From a bacterium BMS3Abin11 (GTDB lineage: Bacteria > Pseudomonadota > Gammaproteobacteria > BMS3Bbin11), in the NCBI GenBank assembly GCA_002897635.1, contig BDTD01000009.1, positions 54,754 through 118,753 of the forward strand: 64,000 nt of DNA, read 5' to 3'. The translations under genes and the position numbers were made by a program. Of this stretch, positions 37,694 through 51,695 are shown piece after piece; within the stretch, counting starts at the first letter, position 1; each line of letters starts with the position of its first letter. The notes under the pieces are model-generated. The model searched no databases and was not told where the DNA came from. It saw only the letters and a program-made list of their open reading frames with translations.

Positions 37694-38566
37694 TCAGTCT
37701 ACGCTACTCCTACGTATCAGGGACAGTTGTTCGGCAAGTAAGCCCAGCAAAAAAAACAATATTCCTGTAATGGTTAGAAGCAATGTACCGGCCTGGACAC
37801 CCTCACCTCTAAGCAGAAAGGGTAAACCCCAGATGATGCCGGCCAGAACAAAAATAATTGCAAGTGGTAGAAATATCCTGTTTGGATTAAATAATATAAC
37901 AATATTCAAAATCTCCAAAATTGTATCCAGTGCTGTCCTTGTATTTATAGTGCTAGTACCTGATATCCGGGACCTGATCTGTATGTCCTTCTCCAGTACA
38001 AGATGTTTTTGATTGATAAACACGAGAGTGATGATGTCGCTATATGCCATAGTATCCGGACATAAACGGATATATTTCTTGGCCAGATCAGATCTGTACA
38101 CTTTCATACCAGAGTTAAGATCAGTAATTTGAAAGGACATCAGTAATTTTGCAATACTACGAATCATGAATTTACCGAAACGTCGGTACCTGGAACCTTG
38201 ATGACTATCTCTCTTACCAATAACCATATCTGCATCAGTCACCATGAGATAATTAAACAACATTCCGATATCATCAAGAGAATGCTGTCCATCTGCATCA
38301 ACAGTGATCAGGAATTCTGTGTCAACCCTTTCAATGGCTGTCTTGATTGCGCTGCCATAGCCCCTGTTTATTTTGTGATGTATAACTGTCAGCATGTCAC
38401 CCTGATCAGCAGCATCAAGAATTTCCCCTGTAGTATCTGACGAGCCATCATTGACAACAATAAGCTTGTAACCATTTTTTCCGCAATACTCGCACATATC
38501 TTCAAGAAATGTAGGTAGCGACCCTTCTTCGTTGAATGCGGGAACAATTATCGTTAGATCTTTCAA
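37694..38566 (-). CDS. GT2 polyprenyl-phosphate sugar synthase (ArnC/GtrB/DPM1-like)
   Basis: IIVPAFNEEGSL...VVNDGSSD...DADGQH GT-A motifs plus two C-terminal TM helices, typical of Und-P-sugar synthases. Confidence 0.8.
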   Translation of the reverse strand: MKDLTIIVPAFNEEGSLPTFLEDMCEYCGKNGYKLIVVNDGSSDTTGEILDAADQGDMLTVIHHKINRGYGSAIKTAIERVDTEFLITVDADGQHSLDDIGMLFNYLMVTDADMVIGKRDSHQGSRYRRFGKFMIRSIAKLLMSFQITDLNSGMKVYRSDLAKKYIRLCPDTMAYSDIITLVFINQKHLVLEKDIQIRSRISGTSTINTRTALDTILEILNIVILFNPNRIFLPLAIIFVLAGIIWGLPFLLRGEGVQAGTLLLTITGILFFLLGLLAEQLSLIRRSSVD

Positions 38567-39088
38567 AAAATCTCTTCCTAGTGCGTTTTTTATGTTTTCG
38601 TAATTTTACCCTGATTGATTATCCCTGCAACTATAATTGGTCTAGTCAACTACGACTCAATCTTCTCGAGATGAGTACAGCATGCCTAAAATGCTTTGCG
38701 ACAATTCTGTTTTGTATCGAAACACTGCTGTCCCATAAATCTGCGGAGGGATATCTCAACGACTGAACACACCTGTAGGTTGGGCTGAAGAATGAAGCCC
38801 AACAATGTTTCTTCTGACACGCTGTTGTTGGGCTTCGTCCCTCAGCGCCAACTTACACGAGAATGACTTTTCATGTCTCTTGCCCTCAATTCTGGCCATA
38901 CTTGAGTAGCTGGAACCCTTAAAAAGAGATTAGGGTGTTTTTTATGGGACAGTAATGGTATCGAAACTAACCAGTGACTAGAAGTTTTCGAACGTCATAA
39001 AAAACTGATTTACGCTTTACCCTGTGAAAACAGGTGGTTTATACTTCCAGCACCTCCTGGGTGCCGTCCCATTCACTGGATTATTTCC

Positions 39089-40903
39089 ATGTCTTTAAAT
39101 AACAAGTACGTCACCTTCCTGCTTTCTGTTTCGATATTTATCTTATTCTTTAGCTTTTTTTTTATTACATCTAATATTCTACCTCAGGGTGCAGGCCCAG
39201 ACTGGAAATCGAATACCGATGTAACAAAATTTATCTATGAAAATGGCAGGCTGGCAGTTCTCCCTGATGACGAAAAGGATTTGCACTTCACGGTTTATGG
39301 TGGCACGCGGGCACTAAGACCGCCCCTTTCCTATATCGTGTCCGCAGTTGCTGCAAAAGCTCTTGCATTCACCAATCTTGATTCATATGTGCTGTTTCGC
39401 AAAGGATCCGCACTTTTATGTGCCTTAGCCCTGGCTCTAACATTTTATGCTCTGAGTATTTACTTTAACAGTTATGCAATTGGGATTTTGGGCTCCACAA
39501 TTATAGGTCTAATGCCGCAATTCACTTTCATTGCTTCATATAATAATGATGACAGCGGTGCAATTTTCTCTGCCACACTTATGATTGCCGTGCTGGTTCG
39601 TATATACCGTTATGGGGCATCAAATACCAATGCAATTTTACTCGGCCTTGCTGGCGGACTAGTCGTGCTTTCAAAGATGACTGCATGGCTATTAATGCCA
39701 TCTGTCGTTCTATTTCTAATCATTTTCTTCCGGTCTCCTGTGCGCTCACTACTGCGTTACGCCTCCATTGCAGGAGTGGTCTTTATTCTAGCTGGCGGCT
39801 GGTGGTTTGCGTTTAACACCTATCACTATGGGATCGATGATCCACTGCTGAAAAAAATTACCACCACAGTAATAGAGCAGCACAGGCGTCTGCCACCGGG
39901 TTCAGGTGTAGGATTTGCCGCACAGGGAATAGGCTTTTATGAATTATTTGCTGAAAACTATAAAAATTTCCTCGGCGAAACGGCTAAGGCAACCATCGGT
40001 AATCTGGACTGGCTAAAGCTAAAAGTTGGCCCGCTACAGTACACTGTCTATCTGGGTATTTTCTTTTTTGCCCTGTTCTATTATTTTTTCAGCCTATCGG
40101 CATATCTGATAAAACGATTCAGGAATGTAACCGTAAATGATGAACATACCAGGCAGTTAATATTCGAATCACTGCTGCTGTTGATGATAGTTTTTCAGAT
40201 AACCATGTATACCTGGACCAATATCAATAATGATATACAGATACAGGGAAAATACATCATCCCTATTTTTCTTGCCATCCTGCTTTTATTCTTTTCCGGA
40301 ATATATCGATTACCGGGAGTGACCGCCGTTTCAATCAGGAAATTGTCTGAATCGGGTTTCCCTGTAAACGCTTCAAATACTGGCAGGTTTGGTGTATTTT
40401 TGGCAAGCCTGATGTTTATTGTCTATGTACACTGGGATGCATGGCAGAATTATATCATCCCATTTTATCAACCACCTGCGTATGATATAAAGCTGGGAGA
40501 ATTTCATTCTATTCCACTAAATTTAGATCTGAACCAGCGCGCAGATAATCTGGATATACGAGAAACCGGTGGAGGTATTGAGTATATTTCCACAGGTAAA
40601 GACCCAAAAGTCATCTTTAAAAAGGATATCTGCCAGAAGATTTCAACAACATCGATGTTATATCTTGAGTTTAATGCAAAGAATGCAGACACCCTCCAGT
40701 TCTTCATCGATGAAGGTGGAGGTTTTTCGGCGAATATTTCATCCACTGCTACTTATAAACAGGGAGACAACACCCTTTTGCTCCCAATTTCAGCTAACAA
40801 GTGTCAATATCTGCGTTTCGATCCATTTATCGAAAATGGGACATTCATCCTGAAGAAATTTAAGATTGCACCAATGACGATTGTCCCAAGACGAAAGAAT
40901 TAA
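39089..40903 (+). CDS. GT-C glycosyltransferase of the ArnT/PMT (GT39/GT83) type
   Basis: 604 aa. First-loop DDEKDLHF and RPPLSY motifs, about 12 TM helices, a C-terminal about 150-aa soluble domain. Divergent from the GT2-deacetylase operon. Contains a T9 tract near the 5' end. Confidence 0.7.
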   Translation: MSLNNKYVTFLLSVSIFILFFSFFFITSNILPQGAGPDWKSNTDVTKFIYENGRLAVLPDDEKDLHFTVYGGTRALRPPLSYIVSAVAAKALAFTNLDSYVLFRKGSALLCALALALTFYALSIYFNSYAIGILGSTIIGLMPQFTFIASYNNDDSGAIFSATLMIAVLVRIYRYGASNTNAILLGLAGGLVVLSKMTAWLLMPSVVLFLIIFFRSPVRSLLRYASIAGVVFILAGGWWFAFNTYHYGIDDPLLKKITTTVIEQHRRLPPGSGVGFAAQGIGFYELFAENYKNFLGETAKATIGNLDWLKLKVGPLQYTVYLGIFFFALFYYFFSLSAYLIKRFRNVTVNDEHTRQLIFESLLLLMIVFQITMYTWTNINNDIQIQGKYIIPIFLAILLLFFSGIYRLPGVTAVSIRKLSESGFPVNASNTGRFGVFLASLMFIVYVHWDAWQNYIIPFYQPPAYDIKLGEFHSIPLNLDLNQRADNLDIRETGGGIEYISTGKDPKVIFKKDICQKISTTSMLYLEFNAKNADTLQFFIDEGGGFSANISSTATYKQGDNTLLLPISANKCQYLRFDPFIENGTFILKKFKIAPMTIVPRRKN

Positions 40904-41399: not shown

Positions 41400-41745
41400 T
41401 TACTCCCACTCGAGATTATAAATAGCCCGACAAAGTCCATTACTAGCGCGGGTTTCCCAGTGGCCGATGGTGCGCGCCAGATGGGTAAGCTCGGCGCTGG
41501 TGGGCGCCTTGACCCAGCGGAACCGGGTGCTTCCATCGGAATGGTCAGTGTACACACCATCGAGGAACAACATATGGAAATGGATATTCAGATTGAGTGC
41601 CGAGCCAAACCGCTGGATGAGGGTGACCGCCCCGGTCCGGGCTGTCTTTTTTGTCAAGCCCGCTTTCTTGATCAGATGGGTGGCAATCACACGGTAGACA
41701 ATGCCGAGCACCCCGCCCGTGACGGCCGGGTGGATTACCAGGGTG
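41400..41745 (-). pseudogene. IS91-family (HUH Y2 rolling-circle) transposase internal fragment
   Basis: ...VYRVIATHLIKKAGLTKKTARTGAVTLIQRFGSALNLNIHFHMLFLDGVY... matches my memory of the IS91-family catalytic region. It is truncated at both ends. High G+C begins here. Confidence 0.55.
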
Positions 41746-42682
41746 CCCGACTGTTGCTGAGGCACAGATCTACCAGGTCGTCGAGGCGCGCGGTCCCGGC
41801 ACACATCACGGTATCCGCGCCACCCCAGTAAATCTTTACGCCGCCGTCGTCATCCGCGACTGCACCGCAGGTAAAAACGACGTTGTGTACATAGCCCGTG
41901 ATCTCCCAGGGATCCTCTGGGGCTAGCACCCATTCATCCGAAACGCCGATAATCTTCGCCGGATTGGCAAGATCGTGCAGCGCCACGCCGAGACGATAGA
42001 CTGCCCCGTCCATGGTCTCGAATACCCCGTGGTAGATGCTGAGCCAGCCGCGTTCGGTGCGGATCGGTGTCGCACCGGGACCGATCTTCGACTCGTCCCA
42101 GTGATACGGCACCGGCTTCATCACCACCTCGGAATCGCCCCAGTGCACCAGGTCCGGCGACCATGACAGCCACACGGACCAGGGGCTGATCTCCGAATGC
42201 GGTCGGTCCAGGCGGGCGTAGCGGCCGTTGAACCGCTGCGGAAAGATAACGACATTGCGCATGTCCGCCTGGGTGATCAACGCCACGCGCTCAATGGATC
42301 GGAAATCACAGGTCCTGGCCAGCCCGATACGCACACCGTGGCGCGAATAGGCGCTGTAGGTAATCAGGTATTCCCCGTCTATACACGAGATTCTGGGGTC
42401 CTCCACCCCAAAAGCCTCGTATTCACCAAAGGCGCCATCTGTCGACGGCACCAGGAACGGCTCCGGGCCGACCGTAAATTTGAAGCCGTCCTCACTCTCG
42501 GCGATGCCGATGATCGACCGGCCGCTACGCAGGTGGGATCGAAACAGCATGATGGTGCGGCCGTCGTATTGTGTCATGCCGGCGTTGTGCACGGTCTCCA
42601 CCGGGTAGGGGATGTCGTCCCGCGTAAGGATCGGGTTGTCCGGACAGCGTTCGATGATTGGCGGTGGTTTAGCTGCGGTCAT
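41735..42682 (-). CDS. GH130 family glycoside hydrolase / beta-mannoside phosphorylase-like
   Basis: Five-bladed beta-propeller GH130/DUF377 signature (NPIL...DIPY, FNAG, EDPRI, YSAY, PWE). The start ATG is preceded by GGAGG. Overlaps the upstream gene's stop by 14 nt. Confidence 0.75.
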   Translation of the reverse strand: MTAAKPPPIIERCPDNPILTRDDIPYPVETVHNAGMTQYDGRTIMLFRSHLRSGRSIIGIAESEDGFKFTVGPEPFLVPSTDGAFGEYEAFGVEDPRISCIDGEYLITYSAYSRHGVRIGLARTCDFRSIERVALITQADMRNVVIFPQRFNGRYARLDRPHSEISPWSVWLSWSPDLVHWGDSEVVMKPVPYHWDESKIGPGATPIRTERGWLSIYHGVFETMDGAVYRLGVALHDLANPAKIIGVSDEWVLAPEDPWEITGYVHNVVFTCGAVADDDGGVKIYWGGADTVMCAGTARLDDLVDLCLSNSRAPW

Positions 42683-44015
42683 AGTCATCCTCCAGCCGGA
42701 TAATATCGTCTTCCCCGAAATAATCTCCCATCTGCACCTCGACCAGAACCAGCGGGATATCACCGGGGTTCGTGATCCTGTGCACTGCACCCTTTGGGAC
42801 ATCCACGGACTGCCCCGGCCTGAGCGGGATTTCCTGATCCCCCACGGTGACCAGCGCTTCGCCACTGACCACGGTCCAGTGCTCGGCCCGGCGCCGGTGC
42901 TTCTGCAGGCTCAGCCGCTGGCCCGGTTGGACGATGATCTCCTTGATTTTGTGATCATCCCGCTCGAGCAGGTTTTCATAGTGTCCCCACGGCCGATAGT
43001 TCTCCCGCTGGTCGAGGATGCTCTGGTAGACCTCCAGGTAGGCGCGTGCCATGTGCCGGCTGGTAAAGCGCTGTTCCACCTCGTCCCGGCAGGCGCGCCG
43101 GTCGAGCGAATCAATCCTGTCCACCGCCTGTACCGCGGCGTTCACATCGGCCACGATGAATCCCGTCTGGCCGTCGCGAATGAGTTCCGGCATTGAGCCC
43201 CGCCCATAGGCGATCACCGGCGTGCCACAGGCCATGGACTCGACCACGCTCAACCCGAACGGTTCGTCGAAGTGAATCAGGTGCAACAACCCCAGCGCAC
43301 CGCCCAGAAGTTCCTGTCTCTTCTCCGGCCCGACGGAGCCAACATATTCCACCATGGATCCATCGATGTGCGGCTCGACCTGTTCCTGGAAGTATGCCTC
43401 GTCCTGCACGATCCCGGCAATCACCAGCCGTAGTCCGGCCCTGCGCGCCACCTCAATGGCATCGTGGACACCCTTATGGTGGTGGATACGCCCGAAGAAC
43501 AACAGGTAGTCTCCCGCGTCTTCGCGGTAGGGGAATTGTGCGAGATCGATGCCATGATGGATGGTTGCGGCGTAATCGAGTTCACAGCTCCTGTCGGCCT
43601 CACTAATGGCCACATAATAGGTGCTGTCATTGTACTTTTTATAAACGGGCAAAATCGACGGCGAAGAGAATCCATGGATCGTCGTGACCAGCGGTGTAGG
43701 GGTAAAACCGCTGTAACTGAGCGGCAGAAAATCGAACTGGTTGTGGATGAGGTCGAACTCATCCGCCCGCCTGAACACCTCGGCGATATGCAGGCATTCC
43801 CAGACCTTGGGATCAATCGAGGGGTCTTCTGAGTAAGGGCGTTCACAAACCCAGGAAAGTTTACCACGGGTAATGGAATCCCCGGTCGCAAACAGTGTCA
43901 CATCGACACCCATCGCCACCAGCTGTTCTGTCAGGAGGCTGACCACATTTTCCCACGGCCCGTAATGGCGTGGGGGTGTGCGCCAGGACAAGGGACTCAA
44001 CATCGCAATCTTCAT
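42669..44015 (-). CDS. GT4 glycosyltransferase fused to a C-terminal mannose-6-phosphate-isomerase-type cupin
   Basis: GT-B/GT4 core (E..GG motif region, EPFGLSVVESMACGTPVIA) followed by the cupin HRRRAEHWTVVSGEALVTVGDQEIPLRPGQSVDVPKGAVHRITN. Confidence 0.7.
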   Translation of the reverse strand: MKIAMLSPLSWRTPPRHYGPWENVVSLLTEQLVAMGVDVTLFATGDSITRGKLSWVCERPYSEDPSIDPKVWECLHIAEVFRRADEFDLIHNQFDFLPLSYSGFTPTPLVTTIHGFSSPSILPVYKKYNDSTYYVAISEADRSCELDYAATIHHGIDLAQFPYREDAGDYLLFFGRIHHHKGVHDAIEVARRAGLRLVIAGIVQDEAYFQEQVEPHIDGSMVEYVGSVGPEKRQELLGGALGLLHLIHFDEPFGLSVVESMACGTPVIAYGRGSMPELIRDGQTGFIVADVNAAVQAVDRIDSLDRRACRDEVEQRFTSRHMARAYLEVYQSILDQRENYRPWGHYENLLERDDHKIKEIIVQPGQRLSLQKHRRRAEHWTVVSGEALVTVGDQEIPLRPGQSVDVPKGAVHRITNPGDIPLVLVEVQMGDYFGEDDIIRLEDDYDRS

Positions 44016-44327
44016 AAAAGAGGCCTGCGTGAACACCTGCGCGCGATCCACGCGCCAGCGGGGTGTTGTTATGATCAGGAACAAATCTGATAGCACAGTA
44101 ACACGATTTGCCTGACGGGCTACAATAACAAAACACCTGACAAAACGAAACCACCGCCCATTCAGATAAGGCTTGGACAGGGTGGAAATTTTACCCTTGC
44201 TGCCGCTAAAGATAGTATAGTGTGTTGAAACAAAAATAGTCTAATCTATTGCCAATTCAACTATAATCCGATATAGCCTGCCACGCAGACCGAACCAGGC
44301 GCAGAGGGCTTGTACCACGTGGAAGCA

Positions 44328-45812
44328 ATGAAAATGGAAAGCAGACCTGACCCCACCACTCCACTCGCGCGGCGCAAGTCGATCGTGATGAAGGCGAAGA
44401 TCAGTCGCGTCATTACCCGGCCGTATCTGCCGTCCGGTGAAGAACGCATCCAAAAAGTTATCCAGCGGGTGTTGAGCCTGGACGAGAATGAGGCGGATAC
44501 GGTGCTGGAAACCCTCTTGCAGGATTTTTCCCACCGCCACCGCTACTTCAGGGAGACCCTGGAGCAAAATTTTGCACGGGTAGCTGACTTTTTGCCGGAT
44601 ATCGATCAGGTATCGAAGCAACGGCGGCTTCTGATCGGCGCGTACTTTACCGCGGAATACTCAGTGGAGGCGGCGGCGTTGTTCAATCCCTCAATCGTTC
44701 AGGTTCCGAACCAGGAGGCGGATCCTGAAGGCACCTGCCGGTTTGTTATGAGCTTCCGTGCCACTGGTGAAGGCCACATCTCCTCCATCGAGTTTCGCAG
44801 CGGGGTTATCGATACCAACAACGATATCTACTTCGATGGCCTGAGCGACTACGTAGCAACCCCGGAAATCCACCCCAACCCAAGCTATGACCGGCACCTG
44901 TTTCGGCTGAAACTCCAGGAGATGGGGGCGAATAATGCGGTAACGCACCAGCTTCTAAACAGGCTGCCGGACAATTTCACCTTCAACGATCTGCAGGGAA
45001 AGATCGCCGAACTCCAGAACAACGGCCAGTTTCCGCCACAGGAGCAGACGGATGCCATTGACATGGCAATGTGGCTGGCGCAATCCAATTACCAGATTTT
45101 GTTTCGCAAGGAACACGCAATTTCCGAGCGGGTGATCTTTCCCGTGTCGGAATCCGAGCGCAAGGGGATCGAGGATGCCCGCTTTGTACGTTTCGTCGAC
45201 GACGACGGCACGGCGGTCTACTACGCCACCTATACCGCGTACAACGGAGAGACGATCCTGCCGCAACTCATCGAGACCCGCGATTTCCTCTCCTTCAAGC
45301 ACATTACGCTGAATGGAGCCCAGGTACAGGGCAAGGGCATGGCCCTGTTCCCGAGAAAGATTGGGGGCAACTACGTGATGCTGTCGCGCCAGGATGGTGA
45401 GAACAATACCATCATGTTCTCGGACAACCTGCACTTCTGGCAGCAGGCCCAGATTCTTCAGGAGCCTGAGTTCCCCTATGAATTCATACAGATGGGCAAC
45501 AGCGGCTCACCCATCGAGATGCCCGAAGGCTGGCTGGTCGTGACCCACGGGGTGGGTCCGATGCGGACCTACAGCCTCGGCATCGAGTTGCTCGACCTGG
45601 ACGACCCGACCCGGATCATCAACCGGATTGAGGAGCCGATCCTGGTGCCGAATGCGTATGAGCGGGAGGGGTATGTCCCGAACGTGGTTTACAGTTGTGG
45701 CGCACTCATCCACCAGGACGAATTGATCATCCCCTACGCCTCGGGCGACCAGCGCTGCGGCATAGCAACCCTGCAGCTACCACAGCTGATGGCCAGGCTG
45801 ACAGCACGGTAG
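44328..45812 (+). CDS. GH130-like beta-propeller protein with an uncharacterised about 250-aa N-terminal extension
   Basis: C-terminal about 240 aa shows GH130/DUF377-like blocks (GIEDARFVRFVDDDG...YYATYTAYNG, GWLVVTHGVG, PNVVYSCGA). I recognise no family for the N-terminal half. The ATG at 44328 follows a GGAAG RBS; the listed ORF starts at an upstream TTG. Confidence 0.6.
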   Translation: MKMESRPDPTTPLARRKSIVMKAKISRVITRPYLPSGEERIQKVIQRVLSLDENEADTVLETLLQDFSHRHRYFRETLEQNFARVADFLPDIDQVSKQRRLLIGAYFTAEYSVEAAALFNPSIVQVPNQEADPEGTCRFVMSFRATGEGHISSIEFRSGVIDTNNDIYFDGLSDYVATPEIHPNPSYDRHLFRLKLQEMGANNAVTHQLLNRLPDNFTFNDLQGKIAELQNNGQFPPQEQTDAIDMAMWLAQSNYQILFRKEHAISERVIFPVSESERKGIEDARFVRFVDDDGTAVYYATYTAYNGETILPQLIETRDFLSFKHITLNGAQVQGKGMALFPRKIGGNYVMLSRQDGENNTIMFSDNLHFWQQAQILQEPEFPYEFIQMGNSGSPIEMPEGWLVVTHGVGPMRTYSLGIELLDLDDPTRIINRIEEPILVPNAYEREGYVPNVVYSCGALIHQDELIIPYASGDQRCGIATLQLPQLMARLTAR

Positions 45813-45828
45813 GGAATGGTAGTCGTCG

Positions 45829-48198
45829 CTATTCCGACGATACTTTCTGAACATCAAGCCGGGTGGGCTCTTCCTCCGGTGTAACCCGATCCCAGCTGCG
45901 GTGGTTATAGACGGCGAGCAGCGCCATGAGCCAGCAAAGCGTGGACTCTGCGCCCTGATTTTCATTCGCGCCCTGCGCTTCCAGCCCGTCCCGGCAGCCG
46001 CCGGTCGCATAATCGCAGAGCGGAACCCCCAGATCGTTCTCGCCTTGGTACCAGTTGAGACAACGGTAGGCATAGGTAATCCATTCCTCATCCCGCGTGC
46101 AGTTGAATGCCTCGATACAGGCGTCCACCATCGCGGCCGCCTCGATGGGTTGTTGATCGAATCGCGCTTTTTCGCCGCCTCTGGGAAACCAGCCGTGATT
46201 GCCGATAGCGACAAAGTGCCGGCCCTTCTCATCGGTCTGAACCTGCTTCAACCAGTCGAGAGAGCGCAACCCCATCTCCAGCATCTCGCTGTCGGGAAGC
46301 CACTGCCCAGACAGCAGTAAAGCCTGTGGCAACCGGGCATTGTCGTAGGTCAGGATGTTGTCACACCAGGGCCAGTCTTCGCTGGCGCACCCCAAGGGCA
46401 CTTCCTGCGGGGCGAAATCCCTGAACCGCTGCATCAGTCGTTCCGAGAGTATCTTGCGCATCATTTTCGCGCGGCTGTCCCCGCTGTAGCGGCCCAGATA
46501 GGCATGAATACCGATAATGGCGAAGGCAATCGCCCGTGGGTGGGTGAAATGTTCGGTGGCGTCCAGTGCACGATGGAACAGGTCGACCGAAAAACCCACC
46601 TGCCCCTTATCCCGCCCCAATGCCACTGCGACGCCCAGCCCCCACACCGCACGACCGTGGGAGTCCTCCGAACCTGTTCCCTCTAGCCAGTAGCGATCAT
46701 AGGACATAAAGTTGCGGAAGCGGCCGGTCTGGTCATTGAAGGCGTGACCCAGAAAACTCAGATAAGTGGCGGCAAGGCCGCTTTGTGCTGAATCCAGAGG
46801 CTGGAGGTCCTGTAGCGTGACCGCGACGATCAACGCGCGGGCATTATCGTCCACGCAATAGCCGTGTGTCCGGTCTGCAACCGTGTACTTGGCGTGTTGC
46901 AACATACCCGTGTCATCGGTCATCCGGCGTAAATAGTCCAGCTTGATCTCCGGTAGCCGTTGCTGGCGTAGTCCGAGGGTCTCCAGCCCGCGCCTGGGTA
47001 CGTTCTTCCTCAATCGCTGTCGTTTGGCTTCTGCAAAGGTGTCGAGATAGCGGCGGCCTACATCACTCCAGACCATTTTGCGACCGTATTGATAGGCCCT
47101 CTCCTGGATGGCGCGGCACTCATCGGGATGATCCAGGAGGTCGATGACTTCCCGCGCCAGAGCGGCCTGATCCCGGAATGGAACCAGCCTGCCCCGATCA
47201 TCAGCGAGCAACTCCTGAGCGTGCCAGAAGGGTGTGGATATCACCGCTTTGCCCATCCCAAGCGCATAGGCAAGCGTGCCGGAAATAATCTGCGCCTCAT
47301 TCAGGTACGGAGTGACATAAATATCTGCCACACCGATAAACTCCAGCAGATCTTCGTCGGCAACGAAACGATCATGAAAAACAATGTGCTCCGAAACGCC
47401 GAGTTCTTTTGCACGCCTGTGAAGGCTGTTTCTGTAATCCTCCCCATCTTCCATCTTAAGGTGCGGATGGGTGGCGCCTACCACCATATAGATGACCTGC
47501 GGGTGGGCCTTCACGATCTCCGGCAAGGCATCTATGACCACCTCAATGCCCTTGCCCGGCGAAAGCAGGCCGAAGGTCAGGATGACTTTCTTTCCGGATA
47601 CGCCGAACTTGTCCTTGTAGGCATCGGATTTGACAAACGGCACGTCAGGGATGCCATGATGTATAAGGACAATCTTCTCCTCCGGCACCTGGTAGATATC
47701 GCGCAGGAATTCGACTGAGCGTTCACTCATCACCACCAGCCGGTCTGAGAACTCGGCAAGTTGCATCATGATGTGCCGGTCCTGAAGGTTCGGATCCTTC
47801 AGGATTGTGTGCAGAGTCGTCACAACCGGCATATTGAGATTACGCAGCAGCTCGATAATAAAGCTGCCCCGCTTGCCACCAAAAATACCGTATTCATGCT
47901 GGAGACAGATCACATCCACCTGGTTAAGGTTGCATAAGTCGGCCGCCAGGCTGTATTCGTTCAGTTGAGACTGGTTGATCTCGAAGCGCACCTGAGACGG
48001 GTAGGAATAGCCTGTTGGCCGGTCGTTCATTGCGACCGCCCAACAGGCTTTGTCCGGTGCATTCAGCGCGATGGATTCAAGCAGGTGGGTGGTGAACGTG
48101 GCGATACCACACTGCCGGGGGAGGTGGTTGCCGATGAGGACGATCGACTTGAGAGCCTCCCATTCTGGTCTTGAGCCTGTCGTGCCGAAGTTATCCAT
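45829..48198 (-). CDS. 789-aa fusion: N-terminal GT4 glycosyltransferase plus C-terminal about 400-aa alpha/alpha-barrel glycoside-hydrolase-like domain
   Basis: N-terminal half has GT4 features (GG-loop, FGLLSPGKGIEV, E..G..V.ST). The C-terminal half (HGYCVDDNARAL..., ENQGAEST) tentatively resembles (alpha/alpha)6 hydrolases. Confidence 0.6.
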   Translation of the reverse strand: MDNFGTTGSRPEWEALKSIVLIGNHLPRQCGIATFTTHLLESIALNAPDKACWAVAMNDRPTGYSYPSQVRFEINQSQLNEYSLAADLCNLNQVDVICLQHEYGIFGGKRGSFIIELLRNLNMPVVTTLHTILKDPNLQDRHIMMQLAEFSDRLVVMSERSVEFLRDIYQVPEEKIVLIHHGIPDVPFVKSDAYKDKFGVSGKKVILTFGLLSPGKGIEVVIDALPEIVKAHPQVIYMVVGATHPHLKMEDGEDYRNSLHRRAKELGVSEHIVFHDRFVADEDLLEFIGVADIYVTPYLNEAQIISGTLAYALGMGKAVISTPFWHAQELLADDRGRLVPFRDQAALAREVIDLLDHPDECRAIQERAYQYGRKMVWSDVGRRYLDTFAEAKRQRLRKNVPRRGLETLGLRQQRLPEIKLDYLRRMTDDTGMLQHAKYTVADRTHGYCVDDNARALIVAVTLQDLQPLDSAQSGLAATYLSFLGHAFNDQTGRFRNFMSYDRYWLEGTGSEDSHGRAVWGLGVAVALGRDKGQVGFSVDLFHRALDATEHFTHPRAIAFAIIGIHAYLGRYSGDSRAKMMRKILSERLMQRFRDFAPQEVPLGCASEDWPWCDNILTYDNARLPQALLLSGQWLPDSEMLEMGLRSLDWLKQVQTDEKGRHFVAIGNHGWFPRGGEKARFDQQPIEAAAMVDACIEAFNCTRDEEWITYAYRCLNWYQGENDLGVPLCDYATGGCRDGLEAQGANENQGAESTLCWLMALLAVYNHRSWDRVTPEEEPTRLDVQKVSSE

Positions 48199-48529
48199 AG
48201 ACGCCTTTTTTTTGCCGGTATTGTTGTGCCGGTGGGTGAATGATTCGATGTTGATACTCCAGTAGTCGAATGCCGCCAGATTGAGAAGCGTACTGCCACT
48301 CGTCAGCTGCCCCTATCTTACATGAATTCAAGGTGATTGGTCGGCTGGACGCCAGGCACCGCAAAACCAGACCACACGTTTTTAAGGTACGTGATATTTT
48401 TAACGCCGATGGGCGGTTACACACCTGCCTTTTTCACGTACGGTATTTTTTTAGAGACACCCTCATCTCGTTGGCGATGTGCTCGAAAGCCTCATACAAT
48501 AAGTTAAAAGCCCCCTACTACAACTTACA

Positions 48530-49726
48530 TCATAATTCCATTATTCCTGACACATTAGGGTGCCTATCAACACGATAGCCTGATTCAACCACGAACTGTG
48601 TCCCAAACATCTTTAAGTTTTCAACTAAATTTTTGCAATATTGAAACCCCGTCTGAGCATCCATTCTTTCCTGGTGTAGGCTTTTTTGCAGCTCGGTTTC
48701 AGATAAATTATCTGCCAGACAGGTCACACTCGTCGGTTTTTTGTTATAAACGTGCGTGTTTAGATCGCTCTCGGCTCGATGCCCCTGAGCATAATAATCC
48801 ACAACCATCTGTATGGCTAAAAATTGGACTTGCGGTTTTTCACTACCCAGCATCAAGAGATCAAAAAATATTTTTGGTAAGTTGAGATCACCCTGACCCA
48901 TTTGAACTCCCAGCTGTGCCCAATATTTGTCGCTCCTGGCTATGAGGACATCCTTGCAATGCGCACCGCGAATATATTCCTGTAAAACCATTATATCGTC
49001 TAACGGCTCTCGGCCAGCTGTAACGGGATTGCCAAAGTCAAACAAAATACCAAGACTGGGATTATTGACGGCCTTAACAATTTCCAGCATTTCAGGACCT
49101 GTTAAGAATTCGTGTTGCTCCAGAAGAAGTTCAATACCCCATTTTTCCACCAATTCAGCGGCGTAACAAAGATCTTTAATCGCTTGCTCGACAATTTCAG
49201 AAAAAGTGCCACCCAATCTGATGTAGCAACGAATAACCGGAACGCCCATGGCACGGGCAACGCGAACCGCTTCTTCAATTTCGCTTTTATCCGTGGAACT
49301 AATATCTATCTGTAAGTCGAGCCTGCGCTCTTTTTTCTGGTATGCAAGATCACGCAGATATTCGTCCGATTCACCTGTCAAGCAAATACAAGGATCGCCT
49401 TTGGCTACATGGAGTTGCGCGCCCGCAAATCCCCACTTTCGCGCATAGGCTAAAAATTCATCGATGGTCAGCTGGTCATGCTTGAAATTAAGCTCCAGAC
49501 TATAACGGTTTAAATACCAAATAATATCATCAACCCGAGTGACAATTATTTTTGCCAAATTTTGATCCAGTATTGGAATTGGAATTCCAGCTACAGGGCC
49601 TCCCGATGGGTTAAGGAATTCCTGGAATTGTTGATTTGCGATCACGCTAGAAGGGGTAAATGTTGATTCATTTATTTTGCCAAACTTGTTAAAATTATTC
49701 ATTTTTAGTCCTGTAATGATTGCCAT
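48530..49726 (-). CDS. sugar-phosphate isomerase/epimerase family protein (xylose-isomerase-like TIM barrel)
   Basis: 398 aa, AP-endonuclease-2 / XylA-like TIM-barrel blocks (E...H..D.G.G...E). Longer than typical family members at both ends. Confidence 0.6.
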   Translation of the reverse strand: MAIITGLKMNNFNKFGKINESTFTPSSVIANQQFQEFLNPSGGPVAGIPIPILDQNLAKIIVTRVDDIIWYLNRYSLELNFKHDQLTIDEFLAYARKWGFAGAQLHVAKGDPCICLTGESDEYLRDLAYQKKERRLDLQIDISSTDKSEIEEAVRVARAMGVPVIRCYIRLGGTFSEIVEQAIKDLCYAAELVEKWGIELLLEQHEFLTGPEMLEIVKAVNNPSLGILFDFGNPVTAGREPLDDIMVLQEYIRGAHCKDVLIARSDKYWAQLGVQMGQGDLNLPKIFFDLLMLGSEKPQVQFLAIQMVVDYYAQGHRAESDLNTHVYNKKPTSVTCLADNLSETELQKSLHQERMDAQTGFQYCKNLVENLKMFGTQFVVESGYRVDRHPNVSGIMEL

Positions 49727-51090: not shown

Positions 51091-51372
51091 ATGAAATTGA
51101 GTGAATCGGTAAAACCCATCAGCTACTTGAAAAGCCACACCGCCGAGGTTCTGCGGGACGTCAGCGAGGGGCAACGTACCATGGTGATCACACAACACGG
51201 CGAAGCCAGGGCAGTGCTCCAGGACATTGCCAGTTATGAACAAACCCAGGAATCTCTGGCGCTGCTCAAGATGCTGGCCCAAAGTTCCAAAAGTATTCAG
51301 GAAGGCCGCAGCAAACCCATCAAAAAAGCCTTTGCAGATGTTCGCAAACATATTCGGGAAATCACTGAGTGA
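51091..51372 (+). CDS. type II antitoxin, Phd/YefM family
   Basis: 93 aa with a YefM/Phd-like N-terminus (MKLSESVKPISYLKSHTAEVLRDV...TQHGEARAVL). Overlaps the downstream toxin gene by 4 nt. Confidence 0.8.
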   Translation: MKLSESVKPISYLKSHTAEVLRDVSEGQRTMVITQHGEARAVLQDIASYEQTQESLALLKMLAQSSKSIQEGRSKPIKKAFADVRKHIREITE

Positions 51373-51695
51373 AACGCTATCGTGTCCGGCTTACCGAGGA
51401 TGCAGAGCAGGATCTGATCGACATCTACCACTACATTGCGTTCCATGACTCCGTGGAGAACGCAGATTATGTACTGGATCAGCTGGAATCACTCTGCTCG
51501 CGGCTTACCGATCTGTCCGAGCGGGGCCACGTTCCGCCCGAGCTGGTTCGAATCGGAGTAACAAACTATAAAGAGGTCAACTTCAAGCCGTATCGTGTTA
51601 TCTACGAAGTGATCCGGCAGGATGTTTTCATTCATTGCATCCTGGATGGCCGCAGGGATATGCCATCATTACTCGAGCGACGCCTGATTCGTTAG
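51369..51695 (+). CDS. type II toxin, RelE/ParE family
   Basis: 108 aa, ParE-like fold signature (RVRLTEDAEQDL..., RELRIGNYRVIY-type motif YRVIYEV). Confidence 0.75.
   Translation: MKRYRVRLTEDAEQDLIDIYHYIAFHDSVENADYVLDQLESLCSRLTDLSERGHVPPELVRIGVTNYKEVNFKPYRVIYEVIRQDVFIHCILDGRRDMPSLLERRLIR

Follow-up and report, generated by a model that had tools for sequence, protein, structure and literature searches.

Bacterium BMS3Abin11 carries, on contig BDTD01000009.1, a gene whose product joins a glycosyltransferase of family 4 (GT4) to a C-terminal cupin resembling that of type II phosphomannose isomerases (PMI); the 64,000-nucleotide stretch of this contig that was analysed is hereafter called the window. 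The 448-aa gene product is a genuine two-domain protein, belongs to a large family found in several phyla, and is encoded within a four-gene cassette, acquired horizontally in this genome, that also contains two GH130 proteins and a second GT4. The protein is probably a bifunctional enzyme. From sequence comparison, it could act as a GT4-PMI which, coupled to GH130, would take part in a cytoplasmic cycle of mannoside synthesis and phosphorolysis, a reading for which we find the scales evenly balanced.

Pfam profiles place Glyco_transf_4 (PF13439) at residues 22-158, Glycos_transf_1 (PF00534) at 169-304 (E 9e-25) and MannoseP_isomer (PF01050) at 336-443 (E 2.3e-40, 137.8 bits against a cutoff of 23.6), and Cupin_2 also matches. 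An upstream GTG at 44096, which would give a longer open reading frame (ORF), was rejected as the start since all 30 homologues in the conservation alignment (52-66% identical overall, from Gammaproteobacteria to Methanosarcina) begin with M[KR][IV]AML. The identical protein is found on independent assemblies, namely the NCBI metagenome-assembled genome GCA_011040115.1, the Logan assembly SRR7787331 and, as GBE07589.1, a 177-kb contig of bacterium BMS3Abin11; together with hundreds of collinear homologues, these led to the rejection of a frameshift or of a chimeric assembly as the origin of the fusion. The original prediction, made from the letters alone, had placed a GT4 and a cupin of the ManC/AlgA C-terminal type in one ORF and had quoted a peptide, which is indeed found in the fusion protein. 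The single ORF is borne out by the Pfam domains, by the independent assemblies and by the fused homologues, while the type of the cupin is confirmed by its PF01050 match and its resemblance to canonical C-termini. The accompanying objection, that the domains might be separate or frameshifted ORFs resolved by resequencing, fails, the identical fused protein having been called on independent assemblies.

The same prediction regarded the architecture as unusual and the cupin as something that a GT4 does not normally have, which holds for GT4 at large and does not hold here, where the fusion characterises a large conserved family present in several phyla and in Methanosarcinales. In a scan with one genome per species, relatives were found in 486 species-representative genomes, and most of those examined are fused. 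The best 80 loci of these genomes, which were looked at more closely, include Gammaproteobacteria (Sedimenticolaceae, Chromatiales, Acidiferrobacterales, Thiogranum and Woeseiaceae) as well as Nitrospirota, Nitrospinota, Desulfomonilales, Zetaproteobacteria, Acidobacteria (Pyrinomonas methylaliphatogenes K22), Clostridia and Methanosarcina. Cultured carriers among the matches are Methanosarcina siciliae, M. thermophila, Methanolobus halotolerans and P. methylaliphatogenes K22. Both domains are present in 120 of the 120 best database clusters (79-91% identity, 447-450 aa, with few entries longer or truncated), and a search seeded from Methanosarcina gave 120 further clusters, nearly all of them fused (family proteins of ~448-460 aa). 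The proposed domain-architecture search recovers the fusion in ~15 of the 150 nearest cupin cluster representatives, and the same GT4-cupin architecture occurs in more than 240 protein clusters; it is therefore real and not rare.

Deposited names for family members include "glycosyltransferase" and "Mannose-6-phosphate isomerase, bifunctional enzyme", and GBE07589.1 is named "alginate biosynthesis protein AlgA". The latter label is a mis-annotation because the fusion lacks the nucleotidyltransferase and beta-helix domains and has a GT4 instead. Identity with AlgA/ManC, the fused PMI and mannose-1-phosphate guanylyltransferase (GMP), was rejected in view of the lack of any PF00483 or PF22640 match and of the score with NCBIfam TIGR01479 (GMP_PMI), of which only the last 111 positions (356-466) align, giving 139 bits against a cutoff of 373. 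In the library that was searched, no publication on the GT4-cupin fusion or on the cassette was found. The architecture is thus atypical for GT4 generally, yet it defines an established, widespread and uncharacterised family, whose domains and architecture are already in the databases.

The closest solved relative of the GT4 half is tll1591, or TeGSS (PDB 7fg9 and 8x3q; phmmer E 1.4e-80 over residues 1-336; identity ~43-48%), a retaining UDP-Glc:sucrose alpha-1,2-glucosyltransferase which produces soluble glucosylsucrose oligomers under stress (PMC9909042). The AlphaFold (AF2) model of the fusion protein, with a mean predicted local distance difference test (pLDDT) score of 85, superposes on GT4 structures, and the two Rossmann-like halves expected of a GT4 are seen both in this model and in the Pfam matches; Foldseek aligns the model to 8x3q/7fg9 with a template modelling score of 0.87, normalised to the target, and 42-43% identity. 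Catalysis by tll1591 involves Tyr18 and Arg179, with Lys184 binding the diphosphate, and Trp10 stacks on the fructose of sucrose (PMC9909042). The first three align with Y18, R176 and K181 of the fusion protein, Y18 and R176 being invariant in the 30 homologues and K181 nearly invariant (at least 90%), and the E-x7-E motif E251-PFGLSVV-E259 is also invariant. The GT4 domain is hence best described as a putative retaining, nucleotide-sugar-dependent alpha-hexosyltransferase of the tll1591 subfamily. The acceptor-stacking Trp is one position off (S10/W11 in the fusion against W10/E11 in tll1591), and because of this displacement the acceptor is probably not sucrose. No sucrose-phosphate synthase gene was found in the gene content of the cassette loci.

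The cupin half is 50-60% identical to the C-termini of canonical NTP_transferase plus cupin (PF01050) proteins such as P0258 and P0275, and PF01050 matches all 30 aligned family members. Residues R341-P-W-G344, S369, Q371, H373, E378-H-W380, H412-R413 and N416 are invariant in this alignment, as are E435, D437, I438, R440, D443 and R447 in the tail, while P407, G434, D436 and Y445 are nearly so (at least 90%). The signatures RPWG, SLQxH, EHW, PxGxxHRxxN and GEDDIxRxxDxYxR are accordingly kept, invariant or nearly, across bacteria and archaea. We take Q371, H373, E378 and H412, in cupin motifs 1 (Q/H-x-H...E) and 2 (G-x5-P-x-G-x2-H-x3-N) together with N416, to be the metal ligands, from what is generally known of cupins and phosphomannose isomerases. 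Inspection of the metal site in an AlphaFold model had been suggested as a check: pLDDT exceeds 90 across the cupin barrel, and the candidate ligand residues are all present in the sequence. The cupin is thus predicted to be a type II phosphomannose isomerase domain, which would interconvert fructose-6-phosphate and mannose-6-phosphate.

Among the 150 nearest cupin cluster representatives (at 50% identity), 45 are GMP (NTP_transferase) fusions, ~15 are GT4 fusions and one is a phosphomannomutase (PMM) fusion, the others being short or standalone. The GMP and PMM partners are enzymes of the mannose-phosphate or GDP-mannose pathway. The single PMM fusion, found among P0241-P0390, combines the same cupin with complete PGM_PMM domains I-III. 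Three database proteins of 248-284 aa (P0241, P0243 and P0245), possibly mere fragments, join the N-terminal Rossmann half of a GT4 straight to the cupin, without the nucleotide-binding half.

The fusion gene is followed by a gene for a short GH130. On the minus strand the junction between the two reads CTGGAGGATGACTATG, i.e., CTG GAG GAT GAC TAT GAC CGC AGC TAA, in which the GH130 ATG lies six nucleotides after GGAGG and the two ORFs overlap by 14 nucleotides, as the original prediction had described. Gene callers on public contigs choose the same start, ATG 42682, which is conserved, whereas the alternative ATG 42688 (20-nt overlap) was rejected since GAT is replaced by GAC in many loci. Where a short GH130 lies downstream of a fused gene, an overlap of 11-23 nt is present in 42 of 52 loci, with a Shine-Dalgarno-like motif upstream of the start in 40 of these 42. 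In every overlapping locus the Tyr codon and the first base of the codon after it make up the ATG, in the cupin tail LEDDY(D/G)R. This Tyr codon is TAT in 40 of 40 loci (43.5% TAT elsewhere in the same genes), and the Glu codon within the Shine-Dalgarno motif is GAG in 35 of 36 (45.5% elsewhere in the same genes); the loci are related by descent, so that a naive probability would be overstated, but the direction is clear. The constraint on these synonymous sites speaks against GGAGG and ATG as mere by-products of the protein motif, and the codon usage indicates that selection at synonymous sites holds the embedded start and Shine-Dalgarno sequence in place. Deltaproteobacterial versions have a spacer of 8-9 nt instead of the overlap, with Phe in place of Tyr and GAA in place of GAG. 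The proposal that the fusion and the GH130 are made together is well supported by the overlaps and by the fixed TAT codon, which argue for translational coupling of the two on one mRNA.

The cupin is not a constant companion of the GT4, which is found without it at ~15 of the 80 best loci. In three of these (L053, L055 and L059), the cupin-less proteins are still 84-86% identical to the GT4 of the window. At L055 and L059 (8001-9056 in both) the cupin core is cleanly deleted in frame, the protein reading DREN followed directly by DIILPEDDYETD and the stop, which leaves the last ~12 codons of the cupin tail; at L053 (5719-6753) a shorter remnant is left and the protein ends REN-DDGTD. The Shine-Dalgarno sequence and ATG of the downstream GH130 are still present in the final codons at L059 and L053. 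It follows, from the deletion of the cupin and the retention of the codons for the GH130 start, that the cupin is dispensable in some hosts while the junction is not. At two other cupin-less loci a standalone PF01050 gene is adjacent (L072, E 7e-46; L077, E 1e-32), which, by a Rosetta-stone argument, suggests that the cupin works with the cassette.

These deletions bear on a first alternative, in which the cupin is non-catalytic and binds mannose phosphate, GDP-mannose or a metal so as to regulate or oligomerise the GT4, the protein being functionally only a glycosyltransferase. The loss of the cupin in close orthologues and its absence from other loci would be readily explained, and the half-GT4 proteins described above fit a binding module. 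Enterobacterial ManC has the same cupin motifs, yet the cell needs a separate PMI, and motif conservation therefore does not prove PMI activity. However, between Gammaproteobacteria and Methanosarcina, whose proteins are 55% identical overall, there is no or almost no variation in the RPWG, EHW and GEDDI motifs and in all four putative metal ligands, a stronger constraint than a scaffold normally needs, and both the standalone PF01050 genes beside cupin-less cassettes and the PMM fusion among the nearest cupin relatives speak against a purely structural role. We consider this alternative rather unlikely, although it is the most serious competitor of the GT4-PMI.

The fusion gene belongs to a cassette whose members and surroundings are listed in the table below. 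A tblastn survey of four island proteins against the 80 loci shows a recurring order, namely a 770-810-aa GT4 with a ~390-aa C-terminal domain, a divergent long GH130, the GT4 with or without its cupin, and a short GH130. Copies of this cassette are found in Gammaproteobacteria, Nitrospirota, Nitrospinota, Desulfomonilales, Acidobacteria and Methanosarcina. Their flanks are unrelated and differ from genome to genome, for which reason the cassette is regarded as self-contained. In Methanosarcina and Pyrinomonas it is composed of three genes (the GT4 with the additional domain, a GH130 of a third subtype and the GT4-cupin), and in Desulfomonilales of five. In P. methylaliphatogenes (L062, 9508-10737), a 409-aa ORF directly after the GT4-cupin gene matches GH5 (Cellulase) weakly (E 0.005), which recalls the GH5 of a Thermoanaerobacter cluster discussed below. 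Neither in the window nor at the examined loci does the cassette include a transporter, a flippase, a membrane gene or an N-terminal signal-like sequence.

In the short GH130, the motifs DPR (with the catalytic Asp), RN, RP and YHG align with those of Uhgb_MP and TM1225. GH130 phosphorylases are told from hydrolases by basic phosphate-binding residues in place of Glu (PMC4599007), and the short GH130 falls with the phosphorylases; no NCBIfam equivalog cutoff that would indicate its linkage type was reached. The long GH130, called in its 492-aa form on public contigs, has a catalytic half that resembles beta-1,2-oligomannan phosphorylase (9fj8). Its N-terminal ~260 aa (44334-45110, plus strand) are conserved, with the invariant motifs RFxxSxRxxGEGHxSSIxFRxG and WLAxSNY, and have no Pfam or PDB relative, a profile search included. 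The C-terminal domain of the 789-aa GT4 (45829-47010, minus strand) is all-helical, carries the conserved motifs DDxxR, SED..GR, YxNA and NQGAE, and has no Pfam match; its only relative, found by profile search, is the uncharacterised Yersinia pestis protein YPO2471 (PDB 7tem, E 6.8e-19), on whose function a literature search found nothing published. The AlphaFold model of the 789-aa GT4 reaches a pLDDT of only 46.6, on a shallow alignment. A promoter and terminator scan of the island gave weak sigma-70-like matches only, none above the expectation from shuffled sequence.

Coordinates of the fusion gene, its domains, the cassette and adjoining features in the window
Feature	Position	Strand	Details and basis
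GT4-cupin fusion coding sequence	42669..44015	-	448 aa; ATG 44015, stop TAA 42671..42669; ORF listing and sequence
GT4 domain (GT-B, retaining), tll1591/TeGSS-like	43011..44015	-	Residues 1-335; PDB phmmer, Foldseek, conserved residues
Linker and type II PMI-like cupin (PF01050)	42672..43010	-	Residues 336-448; Pfam, invariant residues, pLDDT
Putative translational-coupling junction	42669..42693	-	GGAGG 42693..42689, GH130 ATG 42682..42680, 14-nt overlap with upstream stop
Short GH130 (GH130s), RN-type, TM1225/Uhgb_MP-like	41735..42682	-	315 aa; PF04041 E 4.5e-54; PDB 1vkd E 8.6e-57
Intergenic stretch separating GH130L from the divergent GT4-cupin/GH130s operon; likely promoter region	44016..44333		Gene arrangement
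Long GH130 (GH130L)	44334..45812	+	492-500 aa; PF04041 at residues 270-495; PDB 9fj8 E 2.4e-33
789-aa GT4, PimA-like N-terminal half and ~390-aa helical C-terminal domain	45829..48198	-	Pfam GT4; PDB PimA E 7e-8
Compositional island with the four-gene cassette, ~7 kb	41500..48400		GC 0.55-0.63 against 0.39-0.47 in flanks
IS91-family (Y2_Tnp, PF04986) transposase remnant	41471..41633	-	E 8.4e-8, residues 58-111 of ORF 41400..41804 (-)

In this genome, the cassette was horizontally acquired. Its GC content stands well apart from that of the flanks, and GC at third codon positions (GC3) is 0.69-0.75 in the four cassette genes against 0.39-0.48 in host genes (tadA, guaA, guaB and others), while in several other genomes the GC of the cassette equals that of its flanks. 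A remnant of an IS91-family transposase, covering only the first 58 of the 183 PF04986 profile positions, is located at the boundary between low and high GC, between the stop of the short GH130 gene and tadA. At 90% identity, the clusters of cassette proteins number 353 and 807 sequences and draw on several families, against 9 members for the host GuaA, which fits a recent horizontal spread.

Several neighbours lie outside this island. A GT2 glycosyltransferase (37694-38566, minus strand) and a 604-aa multi-pass PMT_2-like glycosyltransferase of the dolichyl-phosphate-mannose type (39089-40903, plus strand) have a host-like GC. On the other side, a 398-aa xylose-isomerase-like TIM-barrel protein (AP_endonuc_2; 48530-49726, minus strand) is probably unrelated: its gene was rejected as a cassette member on account of its host GC3 and because it adjoins the cassette only on the genome's own contigs (L001 and L002). 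A Phd/YefM-ParE toxin-antitoxin pair (51091-51372 and 51369-51695, both on the plus strand, with a 4-nt overlap; Pfam labels from the L001 annotation) is located between the cassette side and guaA.

Altogether, these findings lead to a model in which the cassette, as a horizontally mobile unit, would build and phosphorolytically recycle an intracellular mannose-containing glycan or compatible solute. The tll1591-like GT4 domain of the fusion would most likely lengthen a glycoside or oligosaccharide that is soluble in the cytoplasm; both it and the second GT4 would add alpha-linked hexoses to a soluble acceptor, and the GH130s would interconvert beta-mannoside plus inorganic phosphate and alpha-mannose-1-phosphate. 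A host PMM would then join mannose-1-phosphate to mannose-6-phosphate, and the fused cupin would tie the mannose-6-phosphate pool to fructose-6-phosphate and central metabolism, in either direction. The GT4-cupin and the GH130 would be produced from one mRNA by means of the start and Shine-Dalgarno sequence inside the last cupin codons. The order of these steps follows an established route, in which GH130 yields mannose-1-phosphate, converted by PMM to mannose-6-phosphate and by PMI to fructose-6-phosphate (PMC4264767).

A number of points weigh against this model. The cassette encodes neither a PMM nor a guanylyltransferase, and the proposed cycle therefore depends on PMM and GMP of the host. 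Since the GT4s are retaining (alpha) and the GH130s act on beta-mannosides, synthesis is not the simple reverse of breakdown; the real substrate may be a mixed-linkage molecule, or the GT4s and the GH130s may have separate substrates. The displaced Trp makes sucrose an improbable acceptor for the GT4 half, and literature searches found no biochemical work on any family member. To these must be added the precedent of ManC and the dispensability of the cupin, which is deleted at L053, L055 and L059 and absent from several more distant cassettes.

It could also be envisaged that the cassette makes a cell-surface or envelope polysaccharide, for which the cupin would supply mannose-6-phosphate towards GDP-mannose. 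The names in the source annotation ("glycosyltransferase involved in cell wall biosynthesis" and "alginate biosynthesis protein AlgA") point in that direction, as do the GT2 and PMT_2-like membrane glycosyltransferases nearby (37694-40903) and the frequency of GT4s in exopolysaccharide and lipopolysaccharide loci (NCBIfam matches). However, these two neighbours have a host GC3 of ~0.39-0.41, lie outside the island and are not conserved beside the cassette elsewhere; the fusion, without an NTP_transferase domain, is not AlgA; and genes for a flippase, a polymerase, export or a lipid carrier are missing from the cassette. Moreover, phosphorylases of family GH130 need cytoplasmic phosphate and act on soluble mannosides (PMC4599007), and the product of TeGSS, the nearest GT4 to have been characterised, is an oligosaccharide soluble in the cytoplasm (PMC9909042). 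An envelope role is thus very doubtful.

A purely catabolic cassette, which would salvage imported beta-mannosides, with the GT4s re-using activated mannose and the cupin draining mannose-6-phosphate to glycolysis, appears hardly more probable. Two GH130 phosphorylases, a GT4 and a mannose-1-phosphate guanylyltransferase also lie together in the Thermoanaerobacter sp. X-514 cluster (PMC4264767), and the PMI step is the known exit of an X-514-type route. Yet that cluster includes an importer and a GH5, while no internal transporter was ever found in the cassette at the examined loci; the hosts of the cassette are largely chemolithoautotrophs and methanogens of sediments and vents; and a catabolic route would not require two GT4s, one of them carrying a further large domain. 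A link to the mannosylglucosylglycerate pathway is not claimed, as an assignment of MggA/MggS to GH130 was rejected, MggA being a GT4 (PMC3736172).

Returning to the build-and-phosphorolyse cycle, its most far-reaching form is a previously undescribed prokaryotic cytoplasmic reserve or compatible solute containing mannose, which could resemble mannogen or be a mixed alpha/beta oligosaccharide. Synthesis would fall to the two GT4s and recycling via mannose-1-phosphate to the two GH130s, and the GT4-PMI would tie the cycle to fructose-6-phosphate, the whole moving as a unit among marine and hydrothermal chemolithoautotrophs, relatives of sulfate reducers, Acidobacteria and methanogenic archaea. 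This proposal is tentative, and we hold it possible rather than likely. If it is true, a carbohydrate cycle has gone unrecognised in hundreds of environmentally important species, among them sulfur oxidisers, nitrite oxidisers and Methanosarcina; its product could store carbon or act as an osmolyte, with relevance for survival in sediments and vents. Apart from any such role, the database name AlgA is shown to be wrong for the fusion, the cassette offers two conserved domains of no known function (the N-terminal domain of the long GH130 and the YPO2471-like domain), and the cupin tail, which apparently also serves the next gene as ribosome-binding site and start codon, provides a clean and testable case of dual coding constraint.

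Comparison with known systems places the cassette among several partial counterparts. The type II PMI-GMP enzymes (AlgA, XanB and ManC/CpsB; PF00483, PF22640 and PF01050) share the C-terminal domain and its signatures RPWG, SLQxH, EHW, HRxxN and GEDDIxRxED, and in them, too, a PMI domain is fused to a later, non-adjacent enzyme of the mannose pathway; in the fusion described here, the nucleotidyltransferase and beta-helix domains are replaced by a GT4. The fusion would add to PMI-GMP a second natural case in which a phosphomannose isomerase is joined to a distal mannose-pathway enzyme, possibly within a new carbohydrate system. TeGSS, the nearest characterised GT4, shares the GT-B fold, the Y18/R179/K184 residues and the E-x7-E motif with the GT4 half, is cytoplasmic and extends a soluble stress-related oligosaccharide (PMC9909042), but it has neither a cupin nor GH130 partners, its gene lies beside that of sucrose-phosphate synthase, and its Trp10 is displaced in the fusion. 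In the X-514 cluster (Teth514_1785-1796), two different GH130 beta-1,2-mannoside phosphorylases are likewise found beside a GT4 and a mannose-activation enzyme, with alpha-mannose-1-phosphate as the proposed link (PMC4264767); this cluster has an ATP-binding cassette (ABC) importer, a GH5 and a separate full GMP, lacks the fused cupin and the GT4 with the helical domain, and is confined to one genus, whereas the cassette is spread across phyla. Finally, in the mannogen cycle of Leishmania, GT108 mannosyltransferase/phosphorylases, which are evolutionarily linked to GH130, build a cytoplasmic beta-mannan reserve and phosphorolyse it via mannose-1-phosphate (PMC12814180). The likeness is one of functional analogy only, since the Leishmania system is eukaryotic and relies on single dual-activity enzymes with no GT4 or cupin.

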